Shown here: piece after piece, positions 1 to 32,000 of the stretch
Layout of the letters: each line of letters begins with the position of its first letter
How positions within the stretch are numbered: the stretch's first letter is position 1
Assembly: GCA_001761425.1 (NCBI GenBank)
Contig: CP012986.1
Location: forward strand, 390,001-422,000
Direction: 5' to 3'
Source: Candidatus Saccharimonadota bacterium
Lineage (GTDB): Archaea > Nanohalarchaeota > Nanosalinia > Nanosalinales > Nanosalinaceae
DNA length: 32,000 bases
Program-made: the position numbers and the translations under genes
The notes under the pieces: model-generated
What the model was told of the DNA's origin: nothing
What the model saw: the letters and a program-made list of their open reading frames with translations, nothing else
Databases searched by the model: none

Positions 1-291
1 TGCGGCCAATGTGAAAGTAGATCTTCTGTTTCCTATGCTGCTTCCAGTCCAGTTGTAAGGATAATCGTTTTCTCGTGAGAAAGAAACTGTTTCACTGGTT
101 ATATTGTAGGTTCTGAGCTGTACTTCGCCTTCCTGTTGAAGTCTCTGGAACGATTCTGTGTTTTTTACTGCTTCGAGGCCTTCAGACTCTGAAGCTCCGC
201 CACCAGCTAAAAGGTAGAATCCAAGGCCTCCGATAAGGATTAGTGCTAGAAGTACAGGTATTACAGGGATGGTTAACTCTCCTTTCTCCAT
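1..291 (-). CDS. Hypothetical membrane-anchored protein; only the N-terminal part is in the window (the gene runs off the window start)
   Basis: Hand translation of the minus strand from ATG (complement of 289-291) gives MEKGELTIPVIPVLLALILIGGLGFYLLAGGGASESEGLEAVKNTESFQRLQQEGEV... The frame stays open to position 1 and has one N-terminal hydrophobic helix. It is absent from the ORF track because it is edge-truncated. Confidence 0.5.
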   Translation of the reverse strand, partial: MEKGELTIPVIPVLLALILIGGLGFYLLAGGGASESEGLEAVKNTESFQRLQQEGEVQLRTYNITSETVSFSRENDYPYNWTGSSIGNRRSTFTLAA

Positions 292-439
292 AGATACAGG
301 TTCTGTGAACTCGTTAAAAAACCTGGCGGATTTTCCTGCAGAGGCCTTTTTTTGACCTTGAGGAATGCAATATTTTGTTTTACTGGAACTTTGCTTTTAG
401 TCTGAAATGAGTATTTTTTAGGTAGGAGGTGGAAGAAAG

Positions 440-946
440 ATGACAGAGATAAAAACTGCTCATGACCTGTTTGTCCACAACCTGAAATCTATTTATTACC
501 TTGAACAGAGGCTTCGGGATGAGCTGGATGGTCTGGCAGGTGAGGTCACTAATGATGATCTGGCGGAGGCTCTCCAGGAACACAGGAGGGAAACTGTGGA
601 TCAGGTGGAGAGACTTGAAAAAGTGTTTGAGAAACTGGGTGAGGAGATAGAAGGCCACCGTGCTGCCGATTTCCACGGCCATTTCAGGGAGATAAAACAG
701 CTGAACGAGGATATCTACGAGACAGATATGCTTAACATCGCCTTCCTTGATGCAGCGATAAAAACAGAGCAGATGGAGATAACCACCTACAACAGCCTGA
801 TCAGGATAGTCGATGACCTGGCAGTAGACGACGATATAGAGAATCTTCTGAAAGACAATCTCCGGGAGGAGAAAGAAGCTCTCGAAAAACTCAGGAAACT
901 CGCCGGTGAAACATGGTTCAGCAAGATAGTAAAAAGCCTTACCTAG
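440..946 (+). CDS. Ferritin-like DUF892 (YciE/YciF family) protein
   Basis: 168-aa ORF. The N-terminus LFVHNLKSIYYLEQ, followed by AIKTEQMEITTYNSLI, matches the four-helix-bundle YciE/YciF pattern. A GGAGGTG Shine-Dalgarno-like motif lies about 8 nt upstream. Confidence 0.8.
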   Translation: MTEIKTAHDLFVHNLKSIYYLEQRLRDELDGLAGEVTNDDLAEALQEHRRETVDQVERLEKVFEKLGEEIEGHRAADFHGHFREIKQLNEDIYETDMLNIAFLDAAIKTEQMEITTYNSLIRIVDDLAVDDDIENLLKDNLREEKEALEKLRKLAGETWFSKIVKSLT

Positions 947-1018
947 CAGAAAAACCTGGAGAATCATATCTTGGACTTAAACTCGAAAAAACTTTTTCCG
1001 TTAACCGAGTTGAAAAGT

Positions 1019-1090: not shown

Positions 1091-1110
1091 TTAGGATCAC
1101 TCTCTTACTG

Positions 1111-1118
1111 TATAATAA
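1111..1118 (-). promoter_or_regulatory. TATA-like box (TTATTATA on the minus strand) about 24 nt upstream of the tRNA-Gly 5' end
   Basis: A/T-rich octamer at the canonical archaeal -26 region relative to the mature tRNA 5' end at 1090. Confidence 0.45.
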
Positions 1119-1247: not shown

Positions 1248-1709
1248 ATGGAAGATAAAAGTCCGGAGATGGATGATGAGGCACGGAAGGATTTCCTTGT
1301 TGACAGGGCGAAAGAAGCTATCGAACACCAGCTTGAAACCGGAGACGACCCTTTCGAGGAGGAGAGGCCTCAGAGACCTGAATTAAATACAAAGAGGAAC
1401 AGCCTCGATGAGAAAGTCGAGCAGAAGGCCTCAAAGAAGACCTCCGGTGAGTGGAGTATGGAGGAGATCAAGTTTCTGAAGAACAACCGATCCGAGATGA
1501 GCAATGAGGAGATGGAAGAGTTTATGAACAAAGAATCTGAGCTTCACGAGGTTGACTGGGAGCCTTTCTCACGTTCACAGGAGCGTTATCTTATCCAGGC
1601 CTACCAGACCTCTGATCTGGAAGAGCTGGCGGAGCAAATGGATCGCATCGAGAAAGTTCTGGACCTGAAGCTCAGGATGATGGGCCTCGAAGTGCCGGAG
1701 GCAGAATAG
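1248..1709 (+). CDS. Acidic hypothetical protein, in frame with and 3 nt upstream of nop5 (possible split or read-through N-terminal part of Nop5)
   Basis: 153-aa ORF ending in TAG at 1707-1709. Next come GCC and then the nop5 ATG at 1713, in the same reading frame ((1713-1248)/3 = 155). An ATTTTTGA TATA-like element at 1216-1223 lies about 28 nt upstream of the ATG. Confidence 0.6.
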   Translation: MEDKSPEMDDEARKDFLVDRAKEAIEHQLETGDDPFEEERPQRPELNTKRNSLDEKVEQKASKKTSGEWSMEEIKFLKNNRSEMSNEEMEEFMNKESELHEVDWEPFSRSQERYLIQAYQTSDLEELAEQMDRIEKVLDLKLRMMGLEVPEAE

Positions 1710-1712
1710 GCC

Positions 1713-2459
1713 ATGGATAAAGAGAAACTGCGTGAAAAAGCTCTTTCGGACACTAAGGAGGAGCTAAGAAGCGAAGTTGACAGGGACAGGATTCTTGTCA
1801 AGGCGGTCAAACAGCTCGATCAGCTAAATGATAATATAAACACTGAAGTTGAGAGGTTGAGGGACTGGTATTCTCTGCATTTTCCTGAACTGGATGAAGA
1901 GATCAGCGACAACGAACATTTTGTCAAGATACTGTCCAGAGGTATCAACAGAAACGAATTAGAGGCCTTTTCCGATATGGCAGCTGCTTCGACAGGGATG
2001 GAATTGACTGAGGAAGATGAAAAAATGATTGAGGACATGGTAAAGTCCATCTCGGACAGGATGAAGCTCAGAGACCAGATAGAGAACTACGTAAGTAATG
2101 GGGTAAAAGAGGAGATGTCGAATCTCTCTAAACTTCTTGATCCGCTCCTTGCAGCAAGGCTTGTAGGCCTGGCAGGAAGCCTCGATGATCTGGCGAAGAA
2201 GCCCGCTTCGACTGTGCAGATGCTCGGCGCAGAAAAGGCCTTGTTCCGCTATCTACGTGGGAACGGCACGCCTCCAAAACACGGAATCATATTCGAACAC
2301 GAGTTTGTGAACCAGCTTCCTGAAGACAGTAGAGGGAAGATGGCGCGTTTCCTGGCGAACAAGGCCTCGATCGCGGCAAGACTGGATAATTACGGCGACA
2401 AGGAGAAGGGAGAACAGCTCAGAGAGGAATGTCGTGAAAAGTTCCAGACTCTGAAGTAA
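1713..2459 (+). CDS. nop5: Box C/D RNP core protein Nop5 (Nop56/58): coiled-coil, NOSIC and Nop domains only
   Basis: Contains LRDWYSLHFPEL (NOSIC) and LAKKPASTVQMLGAEKALFRYLRGNGTPPKHGIIF (Nop domain signature). At 248 aa it is shorter than the roughly 400 aa typical of archaeal Nop5. It sits immediately upstream of fibrillarin, as in other archaea. Confidence 0.9.
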   Translation: MDKEKLREKALSDTKEELRSEVDRDRILVKAVKQLDQLNDNINTEVERLRDWYSLHFPELDEEISDNEHFVKILSRGINRNELEAFSDMAAASTGMELTEEDEKMIEDMVKSISDRMKLRDQIENYVSNGVKEEMSNLSKLLDPLLAARLVGLAGSLDDLAKKPASTVQMLGAEKALFRYLRGNGTPPKHGIIFEHEFVNQLPEDSRGKMARFLANKASIAARLDNYGDKEKGEQLREECREKFQTLK

Positions 2460-2462
2460 GTG

Positions 2463-3116
2463 ATGAAGATGGAAGAGATACAGCCAGGGATCTACGAACG
2501 TAACGGGAAAATATATACGAGAAACGCTGATCCAGGTAAAAAAGTCTACGGCGAAGGCCTTTTACAGGTCGGAGATGTGGAGTATCGGCGCTGGGAGGCC
2601 TCACGGTCTAAAGCCGGTGCTGCTGTCCGGAAAGGCATGGATCTGGGACTTGAACAGGATGATTTTGTGCTTTACCTGGGTGCTGCTTCAGGTACTACTG
2701 TAAGTCATTTTTCCGATATCCTTGAGGAAGGCTTTGTTCTAGGCGTTGAGTACTCTGATACTGTTATCAGAGGCCTTGTTGAGCTGTCTGAGCGACGGGA
2801 TAATATCGCTCCTTTTCTTGGTGATGCGCGGAAACCAGGGGAGTACAGCGAGTATGTGGATGAGGCTGATATGGTTTTCCAGGATATCTCTCAGAGGGAT
2901 CAGGCAGAGATGTTCCTGAAGAACTGTGAAAAATTCCTGAGAGAAGGTGGTAAAGGCCTTCTGGCTGTCAAGGCTCGTTCTATTTCGTCTTCAAAGGATA
3001 AGAAAGAGATATTTGGTGATGTCCGCGGTAAGGTCTCTGAAGAGTTTGAGATAGTTGATGAGACCGAACTTGATCCTTATGAGAAGGAGCATCTGGTATT
3101 AAAAATTGAAGGATAG
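2463..3116 (+). CDS. flpA: Fibrillarin, rRNA/tRNA 2'-O-methyltransferase
   Basis: Contains VLYLGAASGTTVSHFSDI (SAM-binding motif I) and FQDISQRDQAEM. It is adjacent to nop5. The track starts at GTG 2460; the first ATG is at 2463. Confidence 0.92.
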   Translation: MKMEEIQPGIYERNGKIYTRNADPGKKVYGEGLLQVGDVEYRRWEASRSKAGAAVRKGMDLGLEQDDFVLYLGAASGTTVSHFSDILEEGFVLGVEYSDTVIRGLVELSERRDNIAPFLGDARKPGEYSEYVDEADMVFQDISQRDQAEMFLKNCEKFLREGGKGLLAVKARSISSSKDKKEIFGDVRGKVSEEFEIVDETELDPYEKEHLVLKIEG

Positions 3117-7041: not shown

Positions 7042-7175
7042 AAAATATCCTATTCCTCCATCTGGTCATTTGAACCTTTCTGTTAAAAACTTACCTTGAA
7101 CCCTGTATACAATCAGTTTTTTCGTTGTAGGCCTTCAAAGACTCTGCGACAGTTTTTTCAGGCTTTGAGGCCTTT

Positions 7176-12662: not shown

Positions 12663-14144
12663 TTATACTTTGAGGCCTAGGTAGTTGTTTTTTGGAGGGT
12701 TTTCTCCTTTGGAGACCTGTTTTTGTTCTTTTTCTGCTTTTCTTCTTTTTTCGTCTATCTCCTGTTTTAGGGCCTTGATGTTGGGGAGTTTGGTAGCTTC
12801 TTTGGCCAGTCTTCTTTCTATTTTCTGTTCCAGTCTTCTCTCTTTTTCGTACTGGTCTTCTTCCCATTCTTCTCTTTTGATTTTTTGTTTTTCCTCTTTT
12901 CTGATTTCTTCTATCTCTTCTTCTATGATCTGTGCTGTGTCAAGGTATGTATCCAGGTTTCTGAACAGTTCTCTGATATTTGAAATGTTTTTCTCGTTGA
13001 AGCGTGTTTCAAGATCCTGTTTGTATCCTTTGCTCCATTTAGAGTTGTCTCTGCTTGAGAAATACTTTGTCTGCTGTTCAAGGAGTTCGTATAACTGTTT
13101 TCTGACTTCGGGATAGCCGGGGCCTTTCATATCCTGACCTGTTAGTGATTTCTCCGCTGTTCTGAGGAACTGTACTGTCTCTTTGAGCTCGGATTTTCTC
13201 GGTGCTCTGTATCTTCTCCAGTTATCATCGTATTCCTCACGGATTTTTTCTGTCAAGTCTTTCACGTTGTGGGCCTGTCTGTCCATCTGCTTCAAATAGT
13301 ATTTCAGTTTCTCTATCCTGTACTCCATCTCCTTCAGGAACTGCATCTCTTCCTCTATGTCGTCGTGAGCTTTCACAGAAATCGAGAACCGATCCATTTC
13401 CCAGACGCACTCTTTTTTCAGCCATCTGACATATTCCATGATCGATACAAGGCCTTCGGAGCAGTCCTTATCCTCTACACCTCTAACATACTTCAGATCC
13501 AGGTCTGCAGTAGCATACTGGAGTTGCTCGTTATTTCTTAACTGTGTGGCAATCCTGCACTGCTCCCTGAACTCTTCTTTCGTATAATTTCTTTCCATAA
13601 GCTCCAGGCTGTCACAGCGTATGTTATCTCTGTTCTTCAACCTGTTGACAACAGTTACAAGATCTGTAGGTATATGGACTTTCAGGAGAATGCTCTCTGA
13701 GGCCTGAGGCCTGTAATAACCCTTTTCTTCGACAACGTTCCTTGGCGCAAAGAAATTTCCAGGTTCTCTCGTATCCATTTTTTCATCGTACATCGGGTCA
13801 CGGTTCTCTTTTCCTGCTTCAAGAAACTCTTTCCATACTCTATGCGCCTCCTCGTCTGTGAGGCCTTCTTCTTGTTTTATCTTGTTCATGTACCATTCTT
13901 TCCAGGCCTCAAAAGAATTTTGACCTGTGTTGCCATTGTTGTTCGTAGGTATCAGGTAACGAGTGTTCAGGACTGATGCCAGCTTCTTGTCCTGTCCTCC
14001 AGGGTAGTTTTTCATGCTGGAGCTGTGTTCGCGTGGAAAAAAGATTTCACGTGAAGTACCCCGGTAGGCAAGGATGTAGTCATGCTCAAAAGGCCAGGTA
14101 TCTATCTCTCCCTCTGCAAACTTCTCTGCACTCCATACGCTCAT
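12663..14144 (-). CDS. Orphan protein of about 493 aa with a W/Y/K/R-rich globular part and a K/E-rich C-terminal tail
   Basis: Long open frame. I prefer the ATG at 14144 (MSVWSAEKFAEGE...) because the track extension to 14387 is S/P/R-rich and overlaps the plus-strand ORF at 14291. I recognise no family. Confidence 0.6.
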   Translation of the reverse strand: MSVWSAEKFAEGEIDTWPFEHDYILAYRGTSREIFFPREHSSSMKNYPGGQDKKLASVLNTRYLIPTNNNGNTGQNSFEAWKEWYMNKIKQEEGLTDEEAHRVWKEFLEAGKENRDPMYDEKMDTREPGNFFAPRNVVEEKGYYRPQASESILLKVHIPTDLVTVVNRLKNRDNIRCDSLELMERNYTKEEFREQCRIATQLRNNEQLQYATADLDLKYVRGVEDKDCSEGLVSIMEYVRWLKKECVWEMDRFSISVKAHDDIEEEMQFLKEMEYRIEKLKYYLKQMDRQAHNVKDLTEKIREEYDDNWRRYRAPRKSELKETVQFLRTAEKSLTGQDMKGPGYPEVRKQLYELLEQQTKYFSSRDNSKWSKGYKQDLETRFNEKNISNIRELFRNLDTYLDTAQIIEEEIEEIRKEEKQKIKREEWEEDQYEKERRLEQKIERRLAKEATKLPNIKALKQEIDEKRRKAEKEQKQVSKGENPPKNNYLGLKV

Positions 14145-14290
14145 GTAAAGGCTTTCCAGATGCTTCCTGTTAAAATTTTCCGGAGGGAATAAGGCCTGAT
14201 TATTTATAGAGAATTTTCTGAGGGATGTGGCTGAGGTATTGGATCCTGATATTTTAAATACGGCCTTCTTCACGTGTATAACTGCTGAAA

Positions 14291-14641
14291 ATGTCAGTAG
14301 AGGGGAATAATTACGGCCAGATGCTGGAGAACTCTCATCTGGAGGGTAGCGAAGATTTCTGGATAAAGGAAGTTCTTGAAGAAGCAACTGGCATCTACGG
14401 AGAAAGAAAAGGCCTTGACACCGGTCTTCATGAGGCTGAGTCGCTTTCTGAAGGATATACGGGTTATGTGCTTGAGAACCGGGGTCTTGATCGGAAAATA
14501 CTGGGTTTTGAGGTTGCTCCTGTGATTTCAGAAGAACATGGTACGGGTTTTGCTGTGAGGCCTGAGGAAGACAGTGAAGAATACGGTGATTTCAAGGATG
14601 CTATCTTTAAGGCCATTTATCGTGACGTTGAAGGCTTCTAG
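14291..14641 (+). CDS. Acidic hypothetical protein (116 aa)
   Basis: The ORF has proteome-typical acidic composition and is divergent from the orphan gene. Its stop overlaps the ribL stop (CTAG). Confidence 0.45.
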   Translation: MSVEGNNYGQMLENSHLEGSEDFWIKEVLEEATGIYGERKGLDTGLHEAESLSEGYTGYVLENRGLDRKILGFEVAPVISEEHGTGFAVRPEEDSEEYGDFKDAIFKAIYRDVEGF

Positions 14642-15033: not shown

Positions 15034-15281
15034 GTAGATGTTTCTGTGGTGAACAGTTAAGTTTTCAGGCCTTCAGTAGGTGGCTCTCGCAGCTACCTGT
15101 CAACTTTTTCGGAACAGAAAGGTCTGGAGGTCAAAGTCAGGGATTTAACCACGGCTTTAGAGGAAGGCCTCGAGCTTGACTGGGGGAAAATGAATAGTAA
15201 GACATGTTATGTACCGCAGGGACGGAGAAACAGGTAGTTGGGGCTTCAGGTTTTAGATAAAAGGTGTTGAGGCCTTCTAAT

Positions 15282-17117: not shown

Positions 17118-17140
17118 GTAAGGTGACTCGGCGTGAAGTG

Positions 17141-17147
17141 ATTTAAG
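17141..17147 (-). promoter_or_regulatory. TATA-like element (CTTAAAT on the minus strand) about 27 nt upstream of xpd ATG 17117
   Basis: Its position relative to the ATG suggests a leaderless mRNA. Confidence 0.35.
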
Positions 17148-17182
17148 GCCTCTGAATTCTCCTGGTTGGAAGGGAAAATCAC

Positions 17183-17190
17183 TATAAAAT
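17183..17190 (+). promoter_or_regulatory. TATA box TATAAAAT about 26 nt upstream of ATG 17212
   Basis: Canonical archaeal TATA spacing, which suggests a leaderless mRNA for the membrane protein gene. Confidence 0.45.
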
Positions 17191-17211
17191 CCGGGTGACA
17201 ATTTGATTAAT

Positions 17212-18171: not shown

Positions 18172-18208
18172 TGGAGGTGAGGCCTCCAGCCTTTCTCTCC
18201 ACTTTTTT
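18172..18208 (+). terminator. Hairpin TGGAGG-tgagg-CCTCCA followed by a T6 run
   Basis: Lies 13 nt after the stop of the 17212-18159 gene. The oligo-T at 18203-18208 is the usual archaeal termination signal. Confidence 0.4.
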
Positions 18209-18255
18209 GGGAAAAAGAAAAAATGAAGGGGGGGGAGGGGGGAATATAATTTCTT

Positions 18256-18399
18256 TTACAGCTCTGCTCCGTACTCTCGAAGCAGTAATCTGATAGATTC
18301 GTGGAAGGCATCGGTCTTGTCCTTGAAGACGCCTCTCTCGACCATTTCTTCGACCTCGTTGTTCAATCTATCTGAGAGCCTTACTGAGACCATAGCCAT
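18256..18399 (-). CDS. Ribbon-helix-helix (CopG/Arc/MetJ-like) DNA-binding protein, 47 aa; not in the ORF track
   Basis: Codon-by-codon hand translation gives MAMVSVRLSDRLNNEVEEMVERGVFKDKTDAFHESIRLLLREYGAEL*. The pattern is a beta-strand (VSVRLSD) followed by two helices, which is typical of RHH proteins. Confidence 0.7.
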   Translation of the reverse strand: MAMVSVRLSDRLNNEVEEMVERGVFKDKTDAFHESIRLLLREYGAEL

Positions 18400-18405
18400 C
18401 CAACT

Positions 18406-18459
18406 ATGTAATACATTTGCAGAACTCTATTATAAAGGTAAGGCCTTTCTGTATTACAG
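18406..18459. promoter_or_regulatory. Palindromes ATGTA-A-TACAT (18406-18416) and CTGTA-T-TACAG (18449-18459) flanking a TTTATAAT box (18430-18437, minus strand)
   Basis: Read directly. The proximal site lies between the TATA-like box and the RHH ATG (18399), and both sites share a TGTA-N-TACA core. Confidence 0.5.
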
Positions 18460-18511: not shown

Positions 18512-19750
18512 TTAGAAATCGGTTATTGAGGCCTGGCGGGAGCCTATTATCTTGGATTTTTGTTTGAGTCTGTGGTACAGGAATTTGAATTCGGTTCCTA
18601 TGGTCTGTTTGACTTCTTTGAAGGTGTTGAGTTCTTTTTTCTCGTTGAATGCGTTTCTCATTGTTTCTCTGATGACCCAGACTCCGAGAGGTGCCCAGTA
18701 TTCTGGGCTTACGTCGCGGAGTATCAGGGCTTTTGCCTGTCTTTTTCTGTTTCTCAGGTGTTCCAGTGTTCCCAGTCTTGCTGCGTAGAATGCTCCTGCT
18801 GTCTGTTCTGCGTAGGAGGTTCTGCCGCTGTAAGGTTCGTAGTTCTGTGCTATATAGGTGTTTTCTGCTGTGTTCGGAGGCTTTCCGGTGGAAAGGCTTC
18901 CTTGAGTATCCGACTTTGAAGAGGTCGATGCGTTCCATACGGAGCCAGGCCTTTTCATTTCGATAAGCTCGTATTCCCAGCGTCCGGGGATGAGGAATAT
19001 GTGGAAGTCGTTGCCGACGTATTCATTGTTGTAGTATTCGATCTGGCCGAGTTGCTGGAAGTCTTTCACCTGTCTTCTCAGTTTTTTCGAGATCATGTCG
19101 TCGGTTGCCGTAATGCTCCATCTTGTGGGTACGAGTTCCCTGTTTTCGTCTTCTCCTAGCATACCGGCTGTAAAAGACTGCTGTATCTGGTACTTGTCCA
19201 CTCCTTTATCATGTAACTCGTCTATAGCAGTCTCAGCTTTTGCATCTCTGTCATAGAACATGTCTTCGATCTTTCTCTCTACAGAAGGATTTTCTCCCAG
19301 GTTGAAGGCCTCAACGTCGCCTGAGGCAGAGACAGGTTTTGCTCTTCCGCCTGAGATGCTTTGTCCAGGCCTTTTCTCAAGTTCTACTTCTATGTTTACA
19401 GGTTTTTTCGCCATTGCGATCTCTCTTGTGTTTTTGGCGAAGTTTCCTGGCTTTTTTACCTTCTGTCTTTCTTTGGAGTTGACCAGGGAGGTCCTGAGTG
19501 ATGCTATTTTCTCTATGCTGTAGTTTTTTCTGTACCAGTTTTTTGGTGAGTCCATGAGGCCTGAGCTTCCTAGCGGTTGCTGAGGTGATAGGACTCCGGT
19601 GTTGACTTCGGGATAGTTGTGGCTTCCGATGAAAATGCTTGGTGAGGTTCCTTGGAAACTCTTTTTTCTTTCCTGTGAGGGCATTACTTTCTCGAGTTTT
19701 CTTCTGGCTTCCTCTTCAGAAATACCTTTTGCGAGTTTGCCGTATCCCAT
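18512..19750 (-). CDS. nreA: NreA-like DNA repair protein (archaeal Nre N- and C-terminal domains)
   Basis: Contains SPSIFIGSHNYPEVNTGVLSP, the characteristic Nre N-terminal motif. The length is 412 aa, and the C-terminal RQASITDF resembles a terminal PCNA-interaction (PIP-like) peptide. Confidence 0.7.
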   Translation of the reverse strand: MGYGKLAKGISEEEARRKLEKVMPSQERKKSFQGTSPSIFIGSHNYPEVNTGVLSPQQPLGSSGLMDSPKNWYRKNYSIEKIASLRTSLVNSKERQKVKKPGNFAKNTREIAMAKKPVNIEVELEKRPGQSISGGRAKPVSASGDVEAFNLGENPSVERKIEDMFYDRDAKAETAIDELHDKGVDKYQIQQSFTAGMLGEDENRELVPTRWSITATDDMISKKLRRQVKDFQQLGQIEYYNNEYVGNDFHIFLIPGRWEYELIEMKRPGSVWNASTSSKSDTQGSLSTGKPPNTAENTYIAQNYEPYSGRTSYAEQTAGAFYAARLGTLEHLRNRKRQAKALILRDVSPEYWAPLGVWVIRETMRNAFNEKKELNTFKEVKQTIGTEFKFLYHRLKQKSKIIGSRQASITDF

Positions 19751-19783: not shown

Positions 19784-21535
19784 TTACAGTTTCCAGTGAG
19801 GGTCTTTCGAATCTTTGATATCCACGGTTTCGTCCAGGATGTCTTTTTCTCCTGCTGTGAGAAGATCGCTAAGCTCTTTCAGTTGCTTGTATTCTTTGCC
19901 TGAGATGTTGACGTAGAGAACGTCTCCTTCTTCGAAGTCTCTGCCTACTGTCGCATTTGAGATAGATACTGCGACCTGAGAGCCTTTCTCCGCTTTCTCA
20001 ACTTTTTCGTTCTGTTCCTGGATGCTCTTCACGTTCCCGATGGATACTCCTTCCTTGTTCATAACTCCTCCGCCGTTTAAAACTCCGTCAAGGATCTTGA
20101 CGCCTACGACAGCAGGATCTGAGGAACGGAAGACATGGTCATGTAAAACTTCGATCTTTGCAGGCCTCGAAACTGCTTTTAAGGCCTTCTGCCTTTTTTT
20201 CCTCTGTAGTTGTTCTTTCCAGGCCTGGTAGTCCTCTATTATTTCGTATACGACTTCGCTCTGAAAGATCTTGATGTCTCTGTCTCTTGCTGCTTTTTTC
20301 CCCTGTTCTGTGGTGCCTGTGTTGAATGCGATGATCGCTCTCTCCTCTGGATTCTCGTTTTGAACCTCTGCTATATTGGATTTCTTTACAGGTCCTACTT
20401 CGGCTTTCTGAACATTGATATCTAGGTCCTTGACTTCTCTCATGACTGCTTCAAGACTGCCGAGAGAGTCTGCCTTGACCACGATTCCCTGGTTCTGGGT
20501 TTCGAACTGGCCGAGTTCAAGTTCCTCTTCGACTTCTTTCCTTGCTTTTTCAAGTTCTTCATCGCTCGCAGTCCTGACTGGTGCACCGGAGATAACGTCT
20601 TCCAGGTCTTTACCGGAGATCTTGACTCCTGATGCAGGATGAACTTCGTCTACCTCGTCGTATTGTTTGTCTAGACGGATTTCCTGGAGAGGCCTTGGCT
20701 CCAGGAGTGCACGGATCTCTGTTACTTTTGCTCCGTCCGCTGTTCCGTAGACAAGGTTATTTTTTTTCTTCATGATGCCGTCGTAGTGGATTACGTCGAT
20801 TGTTGTTCCCAGGCCTTTTTCCTGTGAGACTTCCAGTACTGTTCCGCGTCCGATTTCTTTGTTTATCTCCAGTTTGTCGGCGAGGTAGTTCTGGCTGAGG
20901 CCTGTTACTACCATCAGTAGTTCTGGGATTCCTACTCCGCTCATGGCGGAGATTGGTACGAGTGCTGCTTTTTTCTGGAAGTCGTCGACTCTGTCGAATC
21001 TGTCTGTCATTATGTCGTATTCGTCCAGTTCTCCCATCAGTTTGTAGATTTCTTCGTCAATTTTTTTCTGGACTCTCTGTGGTTGTTCCTGGATGGCCTG
21101 TGTGAACATTTTTCCTGTTTCTTTCCAGCCTGAAAGCTTGTCTATCTTGTTTAATGCGATGACGAACGGTGTTCCGCTTTCTTTGAGTATTTTTATGGCT
21201 TCTTCTGTCTGTGGCTGGACGCCTTCCTCTATGTCTACTATGAGGATTGCGATGTCGGATATGCTTCCTCCTCTTTTCCTCAGGCTTGAGAATGCTGCGT
21301 GCCCTGGTGTGTCAATGAACATGAGGCCTGGTGTCTCGAGGTCGGTCTCTAACTGGTCAAGGAGAGGCCCACACACGTCTTCGACAGTGCTGAGCGGTAC
21401 TTCTGTGGCCCCTATCATCTGTGTGATGCCGCCTGATTCTCCTTCTACTATCTTTGATTCACGGATATTGTCGAGAAGAGTAGTTTTTCCTGAGTCTACA
21501 TGTCCCAGGACTGAAAGTATTGGTTGGCGCGGCAT
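19784..21535 (-). CDS. infB: Translation initiation factor aIF5B (IF-2)
   Basis: GTPase motifs are present: G1 GHVDSGKTTLLD, DTPGH and NKID. The length is 583 aa with the typical four-domain size. Confidence 0.95.
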   Translation of the reverse strand: MPRQPILSVLGHVDSGKTTLLDNIRESKIVEGESGGITQMIGATEVPLSTVEDVCGPLLDQLETDLETPGLMFIDTPGHAAFSSLRKRGGSISDIAILIVDIEEGVQPQTEEAIKILKESGTPFVIALNKIDKLSGWKETGKMFTQAIQEQPQRVQKKIDEEIYKLMGELDEYDIMTDRFDRVDDFQKKAALVPISAMSGVGIPELLMVVTGLSQNYLADKLEINKEIGRGTVLEVSQEKGLGTTIDVIHYDGIMKKKNNLVYGTADGAKVTEIRALLEPRPLQEIRLDKQYDEVDEVHPASGVKISGKDLEDVISGAPVRTASDEELEKARKEVEEELELGQFETQNQGIVVKADSLGSLEAVMREVKDLDINVQKAEVGPVKKSNIAEVQNENPEERAIIAFNTGTTEQGKKAARDRDIKIFQSEVVYEIIEDYQAWKEQLQRKKRQKALKAVSRPAKIEVLHDHVFRSSDPAVVGVKILDGVLNGGGVMNKEGVSIGNVKSIQEQNEKVEKAEKGSQVAVSISNATVGRDFEEGDVLYVNISGKEYKQLKELSDLLTAGEKDILDETVDIKDSKDPHWKL

Positions 21536-23508: not shown

Positions 23509-23674
23509 TGTCCTATTTGACCCATTATTTACGCTCCTGTTTAAATATACTGGTTTGTTCTGGAAAGTAGAAGTTTAAGGCCTCTGGTCCAGGTTAGAAT
23601 CTTGGGTTTGAAGGCCTTTCGCTGGGATGGAGAGGTTGTGGAAAAAGGTGGGGGATATGTGGATGTGTTAAAAG

Positions 23675-25817: not shown

Positions 25818-26144
25818 CTACCTGATGAACAGGAAGTAGATCAGGGCTGCGACTAGTAAGGTGATTATAATTCCTGTGTTGATCAGTGAGATCAGAAGCT
25901 TGTTGTTTTCCTTCCAGATAATGGCTCTGTGCCTGGTCTCCTTAATTTTTCCAGGTAGTTCGTTTTTCTTCTTTACAAGTTCTTCCTTCCAGATATCGAT
26001 CCTTGTCGGAGGCTCCGGTATCTCTCTTACAGAATCCTGGTAGCAACGGGTACACTGTTCCGGAACCTTGCCGTCCTCGGCAAACTGTTCAGAATACCAC
26101 TGGTAACCGCATCTTTTACACTCTACGTTTCTGTACTCCTTCAT
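25818..26144 (-). CDS. Tail-anchored zinc-ribbon membrane protein (108 aa)
   Basis: Has an N-terminal CKRCGY...CTRC motif (CxxC-N17-CxxC) and a C-terminal hydrophobic helix LLISLINTGIIITLLVAALIYFLFI. Its start overlaps the preceding gene by 29 nt. Confidence 0.6.
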   Translation of the reverse strand: MKEYRNVECKRCGYQWYSEQFAEDGKVPEQCTRCYQDSVREIPEPPTRIDIWKEELVKKKNELPGKIKETRHRAIIWKENNKLLISLINTGIIITLLVAALIYFLFIR

Positions 26145-28341
26145 CAGTTACTCCTTTTTCCTCTCTTGCCAGCTCAAGAACAAGCTCGGAAAGCTGTTCA
26201 ACCTTGTGCATTAACTCTTTTTTCTCCTTGCTTTCCTCCTCAAGCTGGTTAATACGTTTTTCCAGTTCCTTACCGCTGTTTACATCTTTCTCAAGAGAAT
26301 TCAGGCGTTTCTCAAGTTCAGAGGCCTTTTCCTGTACACTTTTTTGATCGGATTTTTCATCTTCTTTCAGTTCCTGGAGTCCTTTCTTCAGTTCCTCAAA
26401 TTTTTTCTCGTTCTCACTGATTCTGTCCTGGATTTCTTCTGTCTCAGTGTTTCTTTCCTTTTTCGCTTTTTTGAAGTCTTCACGGAGTATTTCAAGTTTC
26501 TTGCTGTTCTGCCCTACATCGTCTCCCAGGGATTGTTCGATCTCATCCAGGTTTTCCTCAAGGCCTTTTACTTCTTCTTCAATGGAGTTGATCTTTTTGT
26601 CGTCTTCTGCTTCTTTCTGAGCTTTTTCTATCAGGTCTTCGAGTCTTTCTATGTCTTTTTCAGTAGCTGATTCGTTTTTTACCTCTTCGATCAGGTTTTC
26701 CAGTTTTTCGGTTTCTTCTAGGGTGGCTGTTTCCTCCTGGAACTTTTCGAGGCCTTGTTCTAACTCTTCAAGCTCTTTTCTCTTGGCTGCAGTGTTTTTT
26801 AGTTCTGAGAAGGCTTTTTTGTCGGCTGTGTGGTGTCCGAGTTCTCTTATTTTTTGTTCGAGGTCTTTCAGTTCTTCTTTGTCTCCTGCTTCTTCTTTGA
26901 CTTTCTCTATTTCTTCACGTAGTTCCTCGTCTTCTTTTTCGTCTTCCAGGTTTTCTATTTTTTCCTGGATTTCGCTGATCTGTTTCTGGAGTTTGCTGCT
27001 TTTGGCTTCCTGATATGTTTTTACTATGCTTTTGATGTTTTCCCGGTCTTTGATCTGGTCTTCAAGGCCTTCGATCCTTTCTTTAAGTTTCTCGGTTTTT
27101 TCCAGGAGTTCGCTGTCTTCTTCCTCTGATTTGTTTTCTACATTCTGGACTCTGTCTTTCAGGCTCTGTATCTTTTTTTCGTTTTCCGGTACAGTGTCGA
27201 TTTCTTCTTCTCTGGAGTTTACCTCGGTTTTGAGGCCTTCTACGGTTTCTTCCAGTTCTTTGACATCCGCGAGTTCTTCCCTTATTTTTTCGTCGAATTT
27301 TTCGCCTGTGATGAGGCCTTCTATATTTTTTTCTTCGTCGTCTATTACCTCTTCGAGTTTGCTGTCTATGTTGTTTTCGTCCAGTTTGTCGTCTATGTCC
27401 AGTTTTACCTGGTCTATGTCTTTTATCTGGTCTTCAAGCATTTCTTCGTGTTGCTCGGTTTTCTGTTTGACAGAGTCGAGTTCTGGGAGTCTTTCCTCCA
27501 GTTCGCCGAACATTGATTCGACTTTTGATTCTTTTTCGTTTACTTCGCGTTTTAGTTGTTCGACGCGGTCCATTTTTTCCTGGAGGGATTTGTGCATCTC
27601 CGCCAGGTTGTCGAAGTCGTCTATCTGCTGGAGATCGTCCTCCATGTCGTCTACGGTGTCCTGTAGGTTGTCAAGAAGTTCCTTGTTCTGTTCTGACTGG
27701 CCTTTTATCTGGTCTACGTTGCCTTTGATTTTTTCAAAGCGTTTGTTGATTTTTTCAGGTTCCATGTCCTCGTAGATGTCTTCTATCTTCTTGTAGCCCT
27801 GTTTGATGTTATCTACTTCTTTTTCCTGTTCTAGAACCATGGAACGGACTTCGCCGATTTTTTCAGAAAGATTGCTCAGGCGTTGGTTAACCTGGTCTTT
27901 GAAACTGTCGACAGATTCGAAACGGCCTTCCAGTTTCTCTGTTTTCTGCATGAGGTCCTGGAGGTTGATCTCGTCTTCTTTTTCCTCTTCGTCCTGATGT
28001 TCTTCTGGATCATAATCTATGTTTTGGTCTTCACGGGCGATCGCGCCGACTGTTTCAGGTTCGTCGTCTTCACTTTCTTCCTCACTGTTTTCTTCTGAGG
28101 CCTCTGCTGCTTGTTCTTCCTTTTTCTCTTTCTCGTCTTTGTTTTCCTCCTGTTTCTCAGGTTTTTCTTGGTTGTCTTCAGTGTTTTCTTCAGGTTCTTC
28201 CTCTTTTGAGGCCTTTTCTTCTTCCTCTTCAGTATTTTCGTTTTCTTGCGACTGTTCTTTCAGTTCTTCTACCTGCTGGTTTACTTCTTCTTCCACATCC
28301 TGGTCTTCTTCGTCGCCTTTGATTTTGTCGAGGACTCCCAT
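26116..28341 (-). CDS. 741-aa hyper-acidic E/K/D-rich coiled-coil protein
   Basis: Uninterrupted ORF. It has a low-complexity acidic N-terminus of about 120 aa, then about 600 aa of heptad-like E/K/L/I repeats, with no hydrophobic segment. Confidence 0.75.
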   Translation of the reverse strand: MGVLDKIKGDEEDQDVEEEVNQQVEELKEQSQENENTEEEEEKASKEEEPEENTEDNQEKPEKQEENKDEKEKKEEQAAEASEENSEEESEDDEPETVGAIAREDQNIDYDPEEHQDEEEKEDEINLQDLMQKTEKLEGRFESVDSFKDQVNQRLSNLSEKIGEVRSMVLEQEKEVDNIKQGYKKIEDIYEDMEPEKINKRFEKIKGNVDQIKGQSEQNKELLDNLQDTVDDMEDDLQQIDDFDNLAEMHKSLQEKMDRVEQLKREVNEKESKVESMFGELEERLPELDSVKQKTEQHEEMLEDQIKDIDQVKLDIDDKLDENNIDSKLEEVIDDEEKNIEGLITGEKFDEKIREELADVKELEETVEGLKTEVNSREEEIDTVPENEKKIQSLKDRVQNVENKSEEEDSELLEKTEKLKERIEGLEDQIKDRENIKSIVKTYQEAKSSKLQKQISEIQEKIENLEDEKEDEELREEIEKVKEEAGDKEELKDLEQKIRELGHHTADKKAFSELKNTAAKRKELEELEQGLEKFQEETATLEETEKLENLIEEVKNESATEKDIERLEDLIEKAQKEAEDDKKINSIEEEVKGLEENLDEIEQSLGDDVGQNSKKLEILREDFKKAKKERNTETEEIQDRISENEKKFEELKKGLQELKEDEKSDQKSVQEKASELEKRLNSLEKDVNSGKELEKRINQLEEESKEKKELMHKVEQLSELVLELAREEKGVTDEGVQKRRV

Positions 28342-28375
28342 TGGTTATACACTGTTTATTTGACTTTGCCGGTAT

Positions 28376-29460
28376 TTAAGACATGTCCATCTCGTCTTTG
28401 AGGCTGTCGATGTACATGTTTGCCATTTTGAATCTTCCTTCTTTGAGTTTGTCGGATGCGAGCTGTAGTTCCAGTTTTTTGTCACGGACTTCCTGGCCTT
28501 CTTCGTCTCTTCTGTCAAGCTCTTCTCTGATTTTGTCGAGTTTTTTTGATAGCCTGTGGTATTTTTCCATTTCTTGGTCTGGTATTTTGTGTGGGTTGTG
28601 GTATGTTGGTCTGAAGTCTACGAACCATGGTTCACCTTCGTTGTAGTTTGAGTTCTGGATCATTCCTGTTCCGATGTCTTCGCTTGAGATTCTTTTTGCG
28701 AACTGTTCGCCGTATTTTTTCTCGATTCTTTCGATATCTTCCATGGATTTGGTTTGCATCTGTATTTCTGTCATGATGTTTCCGGAGATTGCTTGTTTGA
28801 AGTCTGCTGTGACTTGGGAGCACATCATTAAGCCGATACCCCATTTACGGAACTCGCGGGCGCCTCTTTCGAGAGCGTGGTATCCTCCTTGTCCTCCGTA
28901 TTTTTCCAGGAGTCTGTGGACTTCGTCGAATATTACGAGCATTTCAAGTGTGCCGCTTTCCTCCCACTCAATTTCGAAGATCTGGTCGATGATCTCTCTG
29001 ACTGCCTCGTCGAACTGTTCCGTGGTCAACTGGTTCAGTGTGAATACTGTGATTTCTCCAGGCTGTTTCAACTGCTGGAAGTCAATGTCAGGGTTCTCAG
29101 AGCTGACCTCTTTGATAATACCTGGGTAAGGATGCTCCTCTGTCTCCGGGTCCATGTCAAACCTGTCATAATGCTCTTCCAGGTTTTCATCCTTCAGCTC
29201 CTTCACGAATCCGGTCCACTGGGCAGTAGGGTCGAACACAACAACAGGTATGTCATTCTCCAGGGCCTCTTCAGCCACTACATTCGCGGTCACAGATTTA
29301 CCTGATCCTGTTGAACCGGCCACAATAGCATGTGTGGTCAGATCCTTGGGGTCTATGAAGGCCTCTTTCTCTGTCTCTGCGATTTTTCCAACCTCGAAGA
29401 ACCTGTTGTCGTCTCCGCCGGGAAGCTTGCTGTAGTCTACAGGGAATACATACCGTGATT
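28376..29460 (-). repeat. Copy 1 of a direct repeat of about 1.08 kb (the ATPase-encoding 3' portion of paralog A)
   Basis: Shares long identical runs with 30250-31330, for example TTCCATGGATTTGGTTTGCATCTGTATTTCTGTCATGATGTTTCCGGAGATTGCTTGTTTGAAGTCTGCTGTGACTTG, which is present in both copies. Confidence 0.85.
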
Positions 29461-30253
29461 CTTCTTGTTTGTGCTCCTGGTACCATCTTTGAGTGTAGAA
29501 ACCTCCTCCGATTATGATAGCTCCTACTATGGAGAATAATGCTACTTTGATCCTTCTTGCGTTCCAGAAAGGATTTGTAGCTCTGAAAGTGTCCGTAGCT
29601 GTCAGTGTACGGTTGTTCACAGTTAACTGTCCCTGGATGTAATACTCTCCGAGGGGAAGTTCTTCTAGAGGATCTATGTCATAGGTGAAAGATCCAAAAT
29701 TCGAGAAAGAGATATTTCTGGTTGTCTTGTATATTCTGTTGCCGGAGACAGCATCACGGACACCGTAGATTATTTCACCGGTCCTGTTCCTGGTTTCACT
29801 TGATGAAACGACGGTTAAAGTGCTCATAACTCCTTTAGGCCTCATTGTGTCGGCGGTTGTCTGGATGTCAAGTCTTAGATCTGATTGGCTTCTCCTCACA
29901 ACTCTCAGGCCTGCTGGTATGCTTTTTTCCTGGCCTCCGCCGCTGACAATTATGTTTCCGACTTTGAGGCCTTCGCTTATTTCTGTGGCGTTGATTGTGA
30001 TCCTGGCTTCTCCTGATTCTTTCGGTTCGACTGTGATTTCTTCCTGTACGTCTATGATAGATTGGAGGTCTTCATCGGGCTGTATTGTGTAGGTGGTGGT
30101 CTGGTTGCCTGTGTTTCTGATATCGGCAGTGTATATCTGGGTATCTCCTTTGAAGATCACGCTCAGTGATGGTATGTCGCTGTTGACGCTGAGGCCTGCA
30201 CCTGAGCTTGCAAGCAGTAGTAAGAGGCCTGTGATCACTATTTTCTTTTTCAT
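28376..30253 (-). CDS. Bitopic membrane protein: signal peptide, beta-rich ectodomain, TM helix, cytoplasmic HerA/FtsK-superfamily (DUF87-like) P-loop ATPase and C-terminal coiled coil (paralog A)
   Basis: N-terminus MKKKIVITGLLLLLASSGAGLSV; TM helix VALFSIVGAIIIGGGFY; Walker A AGSTGSGKSVT; Walker B LVIFDEVHRLL; and REFRKWGIGLMMCSQVTADF, which resembles the HerA R-K-x-G-hydrophobic-SQ motif. Confidence 0.8.
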   Translation of the reverse strand: MKKKIVITGLLLLLASSGAGLSVNSDIPSLSVIFKGDTQIYTADIRNTGNQTTTYTIQPDEDLQSIIDVQEEITVEPKESGEARITINATEISEGLKVGNIIVSGGGQEKSIPAGLRVVRRSQSDLRLDIQTTADTMRPKGVMSTLTVVSSSETRNRTGEIIYGVRDAVSGNRIYKTTRNISFSNFGSFTYDIDPLEELPLGEYYIQGQLTVNNRTLTATDTFRATNPFWNARRIKVALFSIVGAIIIGGGFYTQRWYQEHKQEESRYVFPVDYSKLPGGDDNRFFEVGKIAETEKEAFIDPKDLTTHAIVAGSTGSGKSVTANVVAEEALENDIPVVVFDPTAQWTGFVKELKDENLEEHYDRFDMDPETEEHPYPGIIKEVSSENPDIDFQQLKQPGEITVFTLNQLTTEQFDEAVREIIDQIFEIEWEESGTLEMLVIFDEVHRLLEKYGGQGGYHALERGAREFRKWGIGLMMCSQVTADFKQAISGNIMTEIQMQTKSMEDIERIEKKYGEQFAKRISSEDIGTGMIQNSNYNEGEPWFVDFRPTYHNPHKIPDQEMEKYHRLSKKLDKIREELDRRDEEGQEVRDKKLELQLASDKLKEGRFKMANMYIDSLKDEMDMS

Positions 30254-31330
30254 TTTATATCCATCTCGTCTTTGAGGCTGTCGATGTACATGTTTGCCAT
30301 TTTGAATCTTCCTTCCTTGAGTTTGTTCTCCGCGAGCTGAAGTTCTAGGTCTTTGTCCCTTGTGTCCTGTCCCTGTTCTTCTCTTCTCTTGAGTTCCTGT
30401 TTGAGTTTGTCAACTTCTTCTGAGAGGTTGTGGTATTTTTCCATTTCTTCGTCTGGTATTTTGTGTGGGTTGTGGTATGTAGGCCTGAAATCTACGAACC
30501 ATGGCTCTCCGTCGTTGTAGTTTGAGTTCTGGATCATTCCTGTTCCTACGTCTTCGCTTGAGATTCTCTTGGCGAATTCCTGGCCGTATTTTTTCTCTAC
30601 ACGGTTTATGTCTTCCATGGATTTGGTTTGCATCTGTATTTCTGTCATGATGTTTCCGGAGATTGCTTGTTTGAAGTCTGCTGTGACTTGTGATGCCATC
30701 ATTAGGCCTATGCCCCATTTTCTGAATTCTCTTGCTCCTTTTTCGAGTGCTTCGTATCCTCCTTGTCCTCCGTATTCTTCTAGGAGTCTGTGGACTTCGT
30801 CGAATACGATTAGCATCTCTAGGTCTGGGCTTTCTTCCCATTCTTTGTCGAAGATTTGATCGATTATGTTTCTTACTGCTCCGTCGAATTCTTCTGTCGT
30901 TAACTGGTTTAGTGTGAATACTGTGATTTCTCCGTCGTTCTGAAGGTCTTCGAAGTTGATTTCAGGGTTTTCTGAGCTGATTTCCTTGATGACGCCTCTG
31001 TATGGATGTGCGTCTTCCTGTGCGTCCATTTCGAACCTGTCGTAGTGTTTCTCCAGGTCATCGTCCTTGAGTTCTTTCACGAATCCTGTCCACTGTGCTG
31101 TTGGGTCGAAGACGATGACCGGTACATCATTTTCTAGAGCTTCCTCTGCGATGACGTTGGCTGTTACAGATTTACCTGATCCTGTGGATCCTGACACGAT
31201 TGCGTGTGTTGTGAGGTCGCTTGGATCGATGAATGCATCTTTCTCTGTCTCTGCGATCTTTCCGACCCAGTAGTTGTCTTCTTCCTCCGGTGGAAGCCTG
31301 TCGTAGTCCACTGGGAAGACATAGCGTGCC
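30250..31330 (-). repeat. Copy 2 of the direct repeat of about 1.08 kb (the ATPase-encoding 3' portion of paralog B)
   Basis: See copy 1. Similarity stops near the codons for RYVFPVDY, just inside the TM helix. Confidence 0.85.
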
Positions 31331-32000
31331 TCTTCCTCCTTCCTGATCCAGTAGTACTGGTAGCCTTTCCAGCCGACGATACTGATCAGGATTACAGCAA
31401 GTATCAGGATCGTTGCCCTGGTCTTGAACGGGGTCCAGAACCTTTCCTCGATTACTACCGTTGCCGAATCAACTACTGTCTGGTTCTTAGCGTCCGCCAC
31501 CGTTTGAATGTAATAGCTGCCTGAAGGGATCTCCTGTGTTGAAAGCTCTCTCTGCATGGAAGTGGCTTCTTCTATACTGACAGAATCATTCAGTTCTCTT
31601 ATCACCTTGTCAGTATCGCTCTCCCTGAAGTAATGTGTGAAGTTTATCTCTACAGGAGTTTCCATAGTGATCTGGCTCACACGGGTTTCAAAGCTGAAGT
31701 TAGAGCCAGGCTCTACATTCTTCGTAAGTGACTTCACGTTTAGATCGAAGCCATCTATACCTTCTCTAGCCACAAGGATCGACTGCGAACTGTTCACGGT
31801 GGTATTGCCGTACTCGGCTACAATCTGGCCTGAATACGTCTTGATCTCTGCATCTTCAGGGATAACAGCCCTTAACTGGGTTATAACTGTCGAGTTAGCC
31901 GACACATTGATTTCAGTGTTATCAGGTCCAAGGAGCTCACTTATCTCGCCTTGGATCGACATATCAAGTTCTATACTTTCCTCCCTGTTGTTATCTATCT
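30250..32000 (-). CDS. Paralog B of the membrane-anchored HerA/FtsK-like ATPase; the frame is open to the window end, so the N-terminus probably lies beyond 32000
   Basis: Same architecture: TM helix ATILILAVILISIVGW, then GSTGSGKSVT, then IVFDEVHRLL. There is no stop between the ATG at 31962 and position 32000. Its TGA overlaps the paralog A ATG (ATGA). Confidence 0.8.
   Translation of the reverse strand, partial: IDNNREESIELDMSIQGEISELLGPDNTEINVSANSTVITQLRAVIPEDAEIKTYSGQIVAEYGNTTVNSSQSILVAREGIDGFDLNVKSLTKNVEPGSNFSFETRVSQITMETPVEINFTHYFRESDTDKVIRELNDSVSIEEATSMQRELSTQEIPSGSYYIQTVADAKNQTVVDSATVVIEERFWTPFKTRATILILAVILISIVGWKGYQYYWIRKEEEARYVFPVDYDRLPPEEEDNYWVGKIAETEKDAFIDPSDLTTHAIVSGSTGSGKSVTANVIAEEALENDVPVIVFDPTAQWTGFVKELKDDDLEKHYDRFEMDAQEDAHPYRGVIKEISSENPEINFEDLQNDGEITVFTLNQLTTEEFDGAVRNIIDQIFDKEWEESPDLEMLIVFDEVHRLLEEYGGQGGYEALEKGAREFRKWGIGLMMASQVTADFKQAISGNIMTEIQMQTKSMEDINRVEKKYGQEFAKRISSEDVGTGMIQNSNYNDGEPWFVDFRPTYHNPHKIPDEEMEKYHNLSEEVDKLKQELKRREEQGQDTRDKDLELQLAENKLKEGRFKMANMYIDSLKDEMDIK

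Follow-up and report, generated by a model that had tools for sequence, protein, structure and literature searches.

The stretch of DNA analysed here (the window: 32,000 nucleotides (nt), positions 390,001 to 422,000 of contig CP012986.1) belongs to a nanohaloarchaeal genome of 1.13 Mb and carries a series of archaeal housekeeping genes (Nop5, fibrillarin, SufBCD, IscS/IscU, XPD, NreA, aIF5B, L7Ae, S2 and enolase). Scattered through these genes and the spacers between them is a six-base palindrome, AGGCCT, which forms the subject of this study. The counts, shuffles and genome comparisons presented below show a sustained and genome-wide pressure at the DNA level for this exact palindrome, one that overrides codon choice as well as some amino-acid constraints.

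The hexamer was found by machine count exactly 129 times in the window (4.03 per kb), whereas dinucleotide-preserving shuffles of the same sequence (n = 100) yielded 7.15 ± 2.76 copies (maximum 14), that is, an observed/expected ratio (O/E) of 18. These figures bear out an earlier note on this DNA, in which about 125-130 copies had been counted by eye against 5-10 expected. Among all 4,096 hexamers of the window AGGCCT ranks second, and the next palindromic one (AGATCT) reaches 19 copies. Overall, 49,006 bp of the same contig hold 202 copies (4.12 per kb); beyond the window, 37 were recorded upstream, over a length of 8.75 kb, and 38 over 10 kb of a giant gene that the window enters at its right end. 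The enrichment thus spans from 18-fold (relative to the shuffled window) to 50-fold (in non-coding DNA).

Enrichment concerns the full hexamer rather than the GGCC within it, because GGCC outside AGGCCT stays at the composition level: 129 of the 198 GGCC tetramers (65%, a lower share than the three-quarters first estimated) lie within AGGCCT, and the other 69 compare with 68 expected from composition for all GGCC. The base at -1 is a purine in 71% of the symmetrised sites (equivalently, a pyrimidine at +1), with A favoured 1.6-fold and C at 0.5-fold relative to other NAGG contexts in the window; hence, the previously noticed preference for R-AGGCCT-Y is real, though only moderate, and the flank profile is flat past ±1, with no information at -2 or beyond. 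A repeat search of the window recovered no longer repeat bearing AGGCCT (hexamer-anchored families appeared only at chance level), and neither shared extended flanks nor terminal inverted repeats, as in miniature mobile repeats (of the miniature inverted-repeat transposable element or repetitive extragenic palindrome kind), were seen around the sites of the window. Markov models of order 1 to 4 predicted 7.2, 22.7, 64.9 and 118.8 copies, respectively. The maximal-order value (118.8 versus 129 observed) is no refutation of the enrichment, since the pentamers AGGCC (147 copies) and GGCCT (160 copies) owe nearly all their occurrences to AGGCCT, and it was dropped as a test, given that the sub-words of the hexamer carry the signal themselves.

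The influence of coding constraints was assessed in 30 genes based on open reading frames (ORFs), a set that was afterwards refined with Joint Genome Institute (JGI) gene calls. The genes hold 108 copies of AGGCCT, while within-gene shuffling of synonymous codons left 18.8 ± 3.9 (maximum 30) and permutation of whole codons left 8.8, so that the enrichment survives codon-preserving shuffling and the earlier proposal of a pressure acting on DNA rather than on peptides, irrespective of frame and strand, is upheld. Every codon phase is represented (13, 37 and 58 genic sites in phases 0, 1 and 2), and the three examples first offered for them (at 1365, 1963 and 2555, in this order) hold, the fibrillarin one with its codon start at 2553 and the hexamer itself two bases further on. 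In phase 0, 13 of the 18 Arg-Pro dipeptides bear AGGCCT, and the permitting contexts are filled in 37 of 55 cases in phase 1 and in 58 of 68 in phase 2 (saturation of 67-85% per phase). Altogether, AGGCCT occupies 108 of the 141 positions that permit it in the ORF-based genes, 111 of 142 (~78%) in the refined annotation, and 38 of 45 in the neighbouring giant gene. As the wobble base falls on other motif positions in each phase (a distinct pair per phase), all six positions are driven, the outer A and T included.

Non-coding DNA (3,389 nt of the 49-kb region), treated separately, carries 20 copies where 0.39 were expected (~50-fold), and thus a density of 5.9 per kb as against 4.0 per kb in genes. 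The sites that had been assigned to spacers are all real (with one position, given as 12668, to be read as 12673), and those at 7129, 7168, 12621, 15067, 15165 and 15270 were verified as non-coding; a 189-amino acid (aa) gene runs off the left edge of the window (to 291), and the sites at 176 and 224 are therefore coding and not intergenic. If a simple equilibrium is assumed, the odds in favour of a site would amount to ~e^3.9 for spacer DNA and ~e^3.2 for the synonymous opportunities, which points to a single pressure of similar strength over coding and non-coding DNA.

One-mismatch variants of AGGCCT are likewise more frequent in non-coding DNA than expected (21 versus 9.05 ± 2.8, a 2.3-fold enrichment), while two-mismatch variants are unenriched (70 versus 79). 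The excess of one-off variants fits better with graded recognition, or with decay from existing sites, than with a rapid conversion of neighbours. Nine of the 21 are C>T or G>A changes at inner positions, a share that could be read in favour of classical very-short-patch repair (Vsr), in which a 5-methylcytosine (m5C) methylase and a Vsr-type T:G endonuclease would revert deaminated neighbours and so over-produce AGGCCT; moreover, the two cytosines of the motif are the methylation targets of known AGGCCT/GGCC enzymes. This route, raised in the earlier note, nevertheless appears very unlikely, as the transition neighbours AGGTCT (23 versus 15.7 expected) and AGGCTT (16 versus 12.1) are not depleted in the window, the outer A/T and the transversion neighbours are driven as hard as the cytosines, and the one Nanohalobia genome covered by a REBASE survey has no Vsr gene entered (V = 0).

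The distribution of AGGCCT among relatives was assessed in syntenic stretches around aIF5B (~20 kb per relative) drawn from GTDB species genomes and metagenomes. Exact protein matches locate the window at about 388,963-420,962 of the JGI contig Ga0136257_100001 (record 3300010222; 1,125,078 bp), and the genomes closest to it are metagenome-assembled genomes of Candidatus Nanohalobium (aIF5B identity 77-89%). As had been suggested, motif density was compared across these related genomes and proved to be bimodal, loci having either 2.0-4.1 copies per kb (O/E 11-19) or 0-0.5 per kb. The enriched loci fall into a Nanohalobium-like clade (L001, L002, L144, L145 and L156) and a second clade (L004 and L010, the latter being the complete genome of 'Ca. 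Nanosalina sp. VS9-1'). Enrichment is lacking in every other nanohaloarchaeon sampled, Nanosalina J07AB43 and the NAR1 contig among them, as well as in the remaining archaea of the sample. No alternative hyperabundant palindrome was found in the unenriched nanohaloarchaeal loci (top O/E ~4, small counts). Within the Nanohalobium-like clade, L145 (Ga0102935_1001494) and L156 (Ga0102942_1006831), with an aIF5B identity of 86-88% and a lower GC content (41-42%), have 2.0-2.6 copies per kb (about half the density of the window, yet at a similar O/E of 11-14.5) and conserve 50-56% of the window sites, which may reflect a weaker or younger pressure, or an effect of composition.

In sister lineages that resemble the window in GC content and amino-acid usage, the orthologous genes lack AGGCCT enrichment. 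This observation counts against the motif being a by-product of codon usage, dipeptide frequencies or composition, for which one could invoke that GGC, GCC and CCT are fairly common codons in the genes of the window; taken together with the synonymous and whole-codon shuffles (about 19 and 9 copies against 108) and the non-coding enrichment, it refutes such an origin, and the lack of conserved flanks and longer repeats does the same for a small mobile repeat.

In a neighbour-joining tree of five concatenated proteins (300 bootstraps) each of the two enriched clades received 100% support, L004 and L010 grouped with six non-enriched genomes at 100%, and the monophyly of all enriched genomes had 0% support. 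The enrichment was therefore gained at least twice, or gained once and completely lost at least twice. The base preferences differ as well: A at -1 is 1.6-2.3 times over background in the Nanohalobium-like clade and shows no such preference in L004/L010, which hints that recognition may be somewhat different between the two clades and fits with separate origins or a diverged recognition. The sites common to the two clades (14 of the 16 window sites with a permitting context in L004) say nothing for or against shared descent, as two independently saturated genomes would yield the same overlap.

Where orthologous genes were compared, the permitting contexts were filled at 60-78% in the enriched genomes and at 4-26% in the non-enriched ones. 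At unchanged amino acids AGGCCT was nucleotide-identical in 91% (L144), 83% (L001) and 71% (L002) of cases, versus 33-37% for control hexamers in the same comparisons; existing sites are thus retained across a divergence that has scrambled other synonymous positions. The proteins themselves appear to have been reshaped: those of the window contain 258 AGGCCT-permitting amino-acid contexts versus 158 in the orthologues, summed over eight non-enriched sets, and the resulting ratio (1.63) is the highest among the 64 palindromic hexamers (median 0.98, standard deviation 0.21), whereas against the other enriched clade the counts are 84 to 76. Since the eight orthologue comparisons are not independent, these values do not amount to a formal test, but they strongly indicate that the protein sequences have shifted toward Gly-Leu, (Lys/Glu/Gln)-Ala-(Phe/Leu/Ser/Tyr/Cys/Trp) and Arg-Pro contexts.

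In spacers, some sites persist within otherwise diverged sequence (18180 and 18441), and others have moved. Those at 15067-15270 have turned over relative to the relatives while density was kept, and in the spacer holding 23578 and 23612 L002 has two copies, one aligned with 23612 and one elsewhere, hence a partial turnover. Such a turnover at constant density would suit binding sites of a nucleoid or chromosome-organising protein, with selection on site density rather than a modification enzyme behind the pattern. The spacing of AGGCCT in the window (mean 238 nt, coefficient of variation 0.88), roughly exponential and slightly more even than random, agrees with this explanation, as does the mild excess of one-off variants, which graded binding energy predicts; for HIP1, the highly iterated palindrome (HIP) of cyanobacteria (GCGATCGC), a role in chromosome structure is favoured by Xu et al. 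(PMC5861425). We consider it unlikely, however, as it is without a candidate protein, as the all-or-none occurrence in two clades would require a DNA-binding protein to have been gained or retargeted twice, and as selection acting separately on over 4,000 sites in the reduced genome of a symbiont would need to outweigh amino-acid constraint.

The reading to which we give about an even chance is a HIP-like pressure exerted through a solitary StuI-type (AGGCCT) DNA methyltransferase that is coupled to repair and encoded by a transferable gene. The agent would be a dimeric, sequence-specific DNA enzyme of StuI-type specificity, most likely a solitary methyltransferase, and its mark would bias mismatch or recombinational repair in such a way that new AGGCCT sites are kept and damaged ones restored. 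A methylation-dependent repair ratchet of this kind was proposed by Elhai (2015, PMC4390886) for the creation and maintenance of HIPs, and the same author described hexameric HIPs (e.g., GGCGCC, O/E ≥15.5) that are confined to single cyanobacterial lineages and occur alongside a cognate methyltransferase. Enzymes that read the hexamer exist: an active restriction-modification system of Alcanivorax borkumensis SK2 methylates AGGCmCT (PMC12128166). For the single Nanohalobia genome, the REBASE survey records one Type II methyltransferase of the m5C kind, with neither a Type II endonuclease nor a Vsr. The enzyme gene would be mobile, which would explain the patchy phylogeny. We favour the methyltransferase because the palindrome is that of a Type II (StuI) enzyme, because of the HIP/methyltransferase precedent, and because of the lone m5C methylase of the survey and a published methylome in which m5C is poorly covered.

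Several points weigh against it. The known methylase-linked repair effects in Escherichia coli are far below 20-fold, and the non-coding one-off variants are in excess, not depleted. The methyltransferase of the survey has no assigned specificity, and its genome lies outside our motif counts. No AGGCCT-specific methyltransferase, endonuclease or repair gene was found in the ~49 kb read of the 1.13-Mb genome or in the ~20 kb read per relative, and thus the link to an orphan AGGCCT/GGCC methyltransferase that the earlier note considered plausible gained no gene from the DNA read. The m5C (PCQ...ENV) and N4/N6 ((D/N/S)PP(Y/F/W/H)) motifs were absent from the six-frame ORFs of the window and of all nanohaloarchaeal loci read, and those window proteins that lack an annotation gave no methylase, endonuclease or Vsr when scanned with NCBIfam and PADLOC, just weak P-loop (CedD, HerA, mad8) and coiled-coil matches. 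A search of a 5.8-billion protein set seeded with M.HaeIII (its sequence checked against PDB 3UBT/1DCT) returned 120 proteins among the matches listed, all of them close bacterial homologues. The sole published nanohaloarchaeal methylome (Nanohalococcus, PacBio calling of N6-methyladenine and N4-methylcytosine) found GDGCHC and not AGGCCT; one of the two Dcm-like methylases was left there without a motif, and PacBio calling is poor at m5C. Furthermore, the mechanism behind the HIP prototype is unsettled, and Xu et al. (2018, PMC5861425) favour selection on function over biased repair.

Alternatively, AGGCCT could serve as a self-recognition or uptake tag that marks a cell's own DNA for import or exchange and accumulates by preferential uptake and recombination. 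That the drive acts on each motif position, whatever the frame and also in spacers, and goes along with reshaped proteins is in line with this idea. Uptake sequences of Haemophilus and Neisseria likewise show a drive at all positions, in frames and spacers, and reshaped proteins. The window contains VirB4/HerA-type ATPases and the 3' end of the giant surface-protein gene, which has such a domain, and the best NCBIfam match of these ATPases is the DNA-translocating CedD, albeit at 44 bits against a cut-off of 600 and with matches that span little beyond the P-loop region. In addition, recent preprints tie HIP1 to transformation and type IV secretion. We nonetheless judge an uptake tag improbable: known uptake sequences span 9-12 bp, are not palindromes and recur roughly once per kb, a 6-mer discriminates little, no competence or uptake receptor was identified in the DNA read, and a VirB4-type cluster has not been demonstrated near the locus of the second enriched clade.

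A broader scenario, unlikely in our view, is that two lineages came independently under a strong molecular drive tied to AGGCCT recognition, which would rewrite synonymous positions, spacers and even amino acids throughout the genome, and that the ~4,500 marks per genome act as a 'self' label in the DNA traffic between symbiont, kin and haloarchaeal host (e.g., during VirB4-type or giant-protein import). If true, this would mark the first case in archaea of a system resembling HIPs or uptake sequences, and one with cultivable relatives.

The two HerA/VirB4-type ATPases carry immunoglobulin-like domains at the N-terminus (best PADLOC match mad8) and belong to a cluster (25818-31962) that further encodes a protein of 108 aa and a coiled-coil (SMC/Rad50-like) protein of 741 aa. 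This cluster may represent a DNA or protein translocation apparatus. According to the JGI gene call, the last ORF of the window (30250-32000, continuing to ~40253) is the 3' end of an 8,573-aa gene, whose product matches the very large 'SPEARE'-type proteins known from nanohaloarchaea. The HerA/VirB4-like ATPase domain at the C-terminus of this protein is paralogous to the neighbouring 625-aa gene (28376-30253), and the direct repeats at 28383-29377 and 30257-31251 share 75-85% nucleotide identity.

The individual sites and several examples of their placement are compiled in Table 1, among them the tandem pair, which was verified as first described.

Table 1. Positions of AGGCCT in the window and examples of sites in each codon phase, in spacers and in close succession
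Feature	Position	Strand	Remark
Phase 0 example, AGG CCT (Arg-Pro)	1365..1370	+	within a 153-aa gene, 1248-1709
Phase 1 example, GAG GCC TTT	1963..1968	+	within Nop5 (1713-2459)
Phase 2 example, GAA GGC CTT	2555..2560	+	within fibrillarin
Two AGGCCT in a 134-nt spacer between the cysteine desulfurase and MatE genes	7129..7173		from the list of non-coding sites
Tandem pair AGGCCTNAGGCCT	13700..13712		inside the lineage-specific 574-aa ORF
Three AGGCCT in a 248-nt spacer between the XPD and cytidylyltransferase genes	15067..15275		spacer sites of relatives at other positions
Two non-coding AGGCCT (18180, 18441) on either side of a 47-aa ORF	18180..18446		both kept in L144, spacer otherwise diverged
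Three AGGCCT within 65 nt, aIF5B gene	20162..20226	-	aIF5B: 7 sites, 7/7 permitting contexts filled
Two non-coding AGGCCT upstream of a 250-aa gene	23578..23617		absent in L144 and L001
AGGCCT starts, 1-10 kb	176, 224, 342, 1191, 1365, 1426, 1597, 1963, 2165, 2236, 2362, 2555, 2596, 2771, 2954, 3725, 4013, 4438, 4738, 4841, 5010, 5232, 5253, 5544, 5753, 6116, 6170, 6206, 6644, 6731, 7129, 7168, 7351, 7906, 8140, 8206, 8423, 8770, 8936, 9155, 9586, 9638, 9939		exact count
AGGCCT starts, 10-20 kb	10017, 10081, 10209, 10492, 10560, 10669, 10835, 10939, 11079, 11529, 12004, 12422, 12445, 12522, 12621, 12673, 13450, 13700, 13707, 13861, 13904, 14192, 14410, 14558, 14675, 15067, 15165, 15270, 15526, 15562, 16037, 16175, 16694, 16972, 17005, 17146, 17631, 17835, 17846, 17976, 18180, 18441, 18529, 18947, 19306, 19367, 19557		exact count
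AGGCCT starts, 20-32 kb	20162, 20182, 20221, 20690, 20811, 20898, 21324, 21660, 22149, 22489, 22653, 23111, 23145, 23224, 23375, 23412, 23578, 23612, 24422, 24547, 24637, 25187, 25479, 26322, 26561, 26750, 27065, 27233, 27314, 28098, 28209, 29359, 29837, 29907, 29967, 30192, 30225, 30481, 30704		exact count

The ORF that holds the tandem pair (12663-14387, minus strand) encodes a Lys/Glu-rich protein of 574 aa with no family match and is missing at the syntenic position in L144 and L002, where the gap between SufB and the cytidylyltransferase gene measures ~1 kb or the two genes are adjacent, respectively. It carries AGGCCT at full density (7 copies, 7 of 8 contexts filled), and is therefore either an old insertion or derived from an equally enriched donor. 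The 47-aa ORF (18256-18399, minus strand), located in an apparent spacer, is well conserved in L144 and L001, with the flanking AGGCCT conserved in L144 only, and looks like a putative ribbon-helix-helix-type regulator. The ORF at 380-967 (minus strand) is probably spurious, as the JGI call and Pfam (DUF892) back a plus-strand gene at 440-946. Two DNA-repair genes lie in the window, NreA (18512-19750; NCBIfam NF041387, 367 bits with a curated cut-off of 700, E = 1e-109) and an XPD/DinG-type helicase (15282-17201), and no link of either to AGGCCT was found. With regard to composition, the plus strand contains 34% T and 20% A, nearly all genes being on the minus strand with purine-rich (A-rich) coding strands.

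Viral contigs were additionally scanned for three AGGCCT within ~80 nt, and those among the matches listed were mostly tandem repeats or non-halophilic, with (D+E)/(K+R) near 1. Three unrelated viral contigs (L110, i.e. IMGVR_UViG_3300031867_007516, 10.8 kb; L025; L112) have dispersed AGGCCT at 1.7-3.6 per kb and non-acidic (non-halophile) proteins, and may be other independent cases of AGGCCT enrichment.

Neither an AGGCCT enrichment nor a HIP-like element in archaea was found described in searchable full text (from which many subscription papers are missing, so that absence is no proof), which agrees with the earlier remark that no archaeal equivalent was known. Within the searchable literature, HIP phenomenology in an archaeon, with a different sequence, a very high density and saturation and a proteome footprint, appears to be new. 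Hyperabundant palindromes of cyanobacteria have been an open problem for three decades, with biased repair versus selection still unsettled, and an independent instance from archaea provides a natural point of comparison for locating the responsible gene (a genome of ~1 Mb, presence or absence among close relatives, apparently two origins); this on/off pattern should make the gene findable. The saturation and the protein footprint further show the extent to which a pressure at the DNA level can mould the reduced genome of a symbiont, and AGGCCT is a sharp signature for the binning and host assignment of these lineages in hypersaline metagenomes.

Among the known systems, Dcm/Vsr of enterobacteria (CCWGG) resembles AGGCCT in that repair tied to a methylase site can raise site frequency, but its effect is small, runs from T to C at the methylated cytosine and depletes the T neighbour, and neither of these signatures applies to AGGCCT. 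The StuI-type system of Alcanivorax borkumensis SK2 (PMC12128166) shares the identical recognition sequence. Genomes with an active endonuclease, however, usually avoid their site or stay near expectation (the Alcanivorax genome has 1,674 sites), while in the nanohaloarchaeal DNA the site is enriched many-fold and no such system was found in what was read. The uptake signal sequences (USS) of Haemophilus and the DNA uptake sequences (DUS) of Neisseria are comparable in their lineage-specific, genome-wide excess in coding and non-coding DNA, in the involvement of every position and in their effect on proteins; they differ in being longer, asymmetric, spaced about once per kb and tied to a competence receptor, as against a 6-bp palindrome with a weak preference at ±1.

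The closest known system is cyanobacterial HIP1 and the alternate HIPs, namely GGCGCC in Calothrix PCC 7103, RCCGGY in Oscillatoria PCC 10802 and GCSGC in Cyanothece PCC 7822 (Elhai 2015, PMC4390886; Xu et al. 2018, PMC5861425), and the choice of HIP1 as an analogue in the earlier note accords with the published HIP features. AGGCCT differs from them in residing in a DPANN archaeal symbiont instead of cyanobacteria, in its sequence and density (~4 per kb), and in filling ~78% of the synonymous opportunities with a measurable shift of the proteins; likewise, a cognate methyltransferase is known for HIPs, whereas none was found in the 49 kb of AGGCCT-rich DNA read. In both systems, a short, GC-rich and perfect palindrome that is also a Type II methylase/restriction site is at least 15-fold over-represented, occurs in all reading frames and in spacers outside any longer repeat, is conserved between genomes beyond what codon conservation accounts for, and is present in some lineages while lacking in their relatives.

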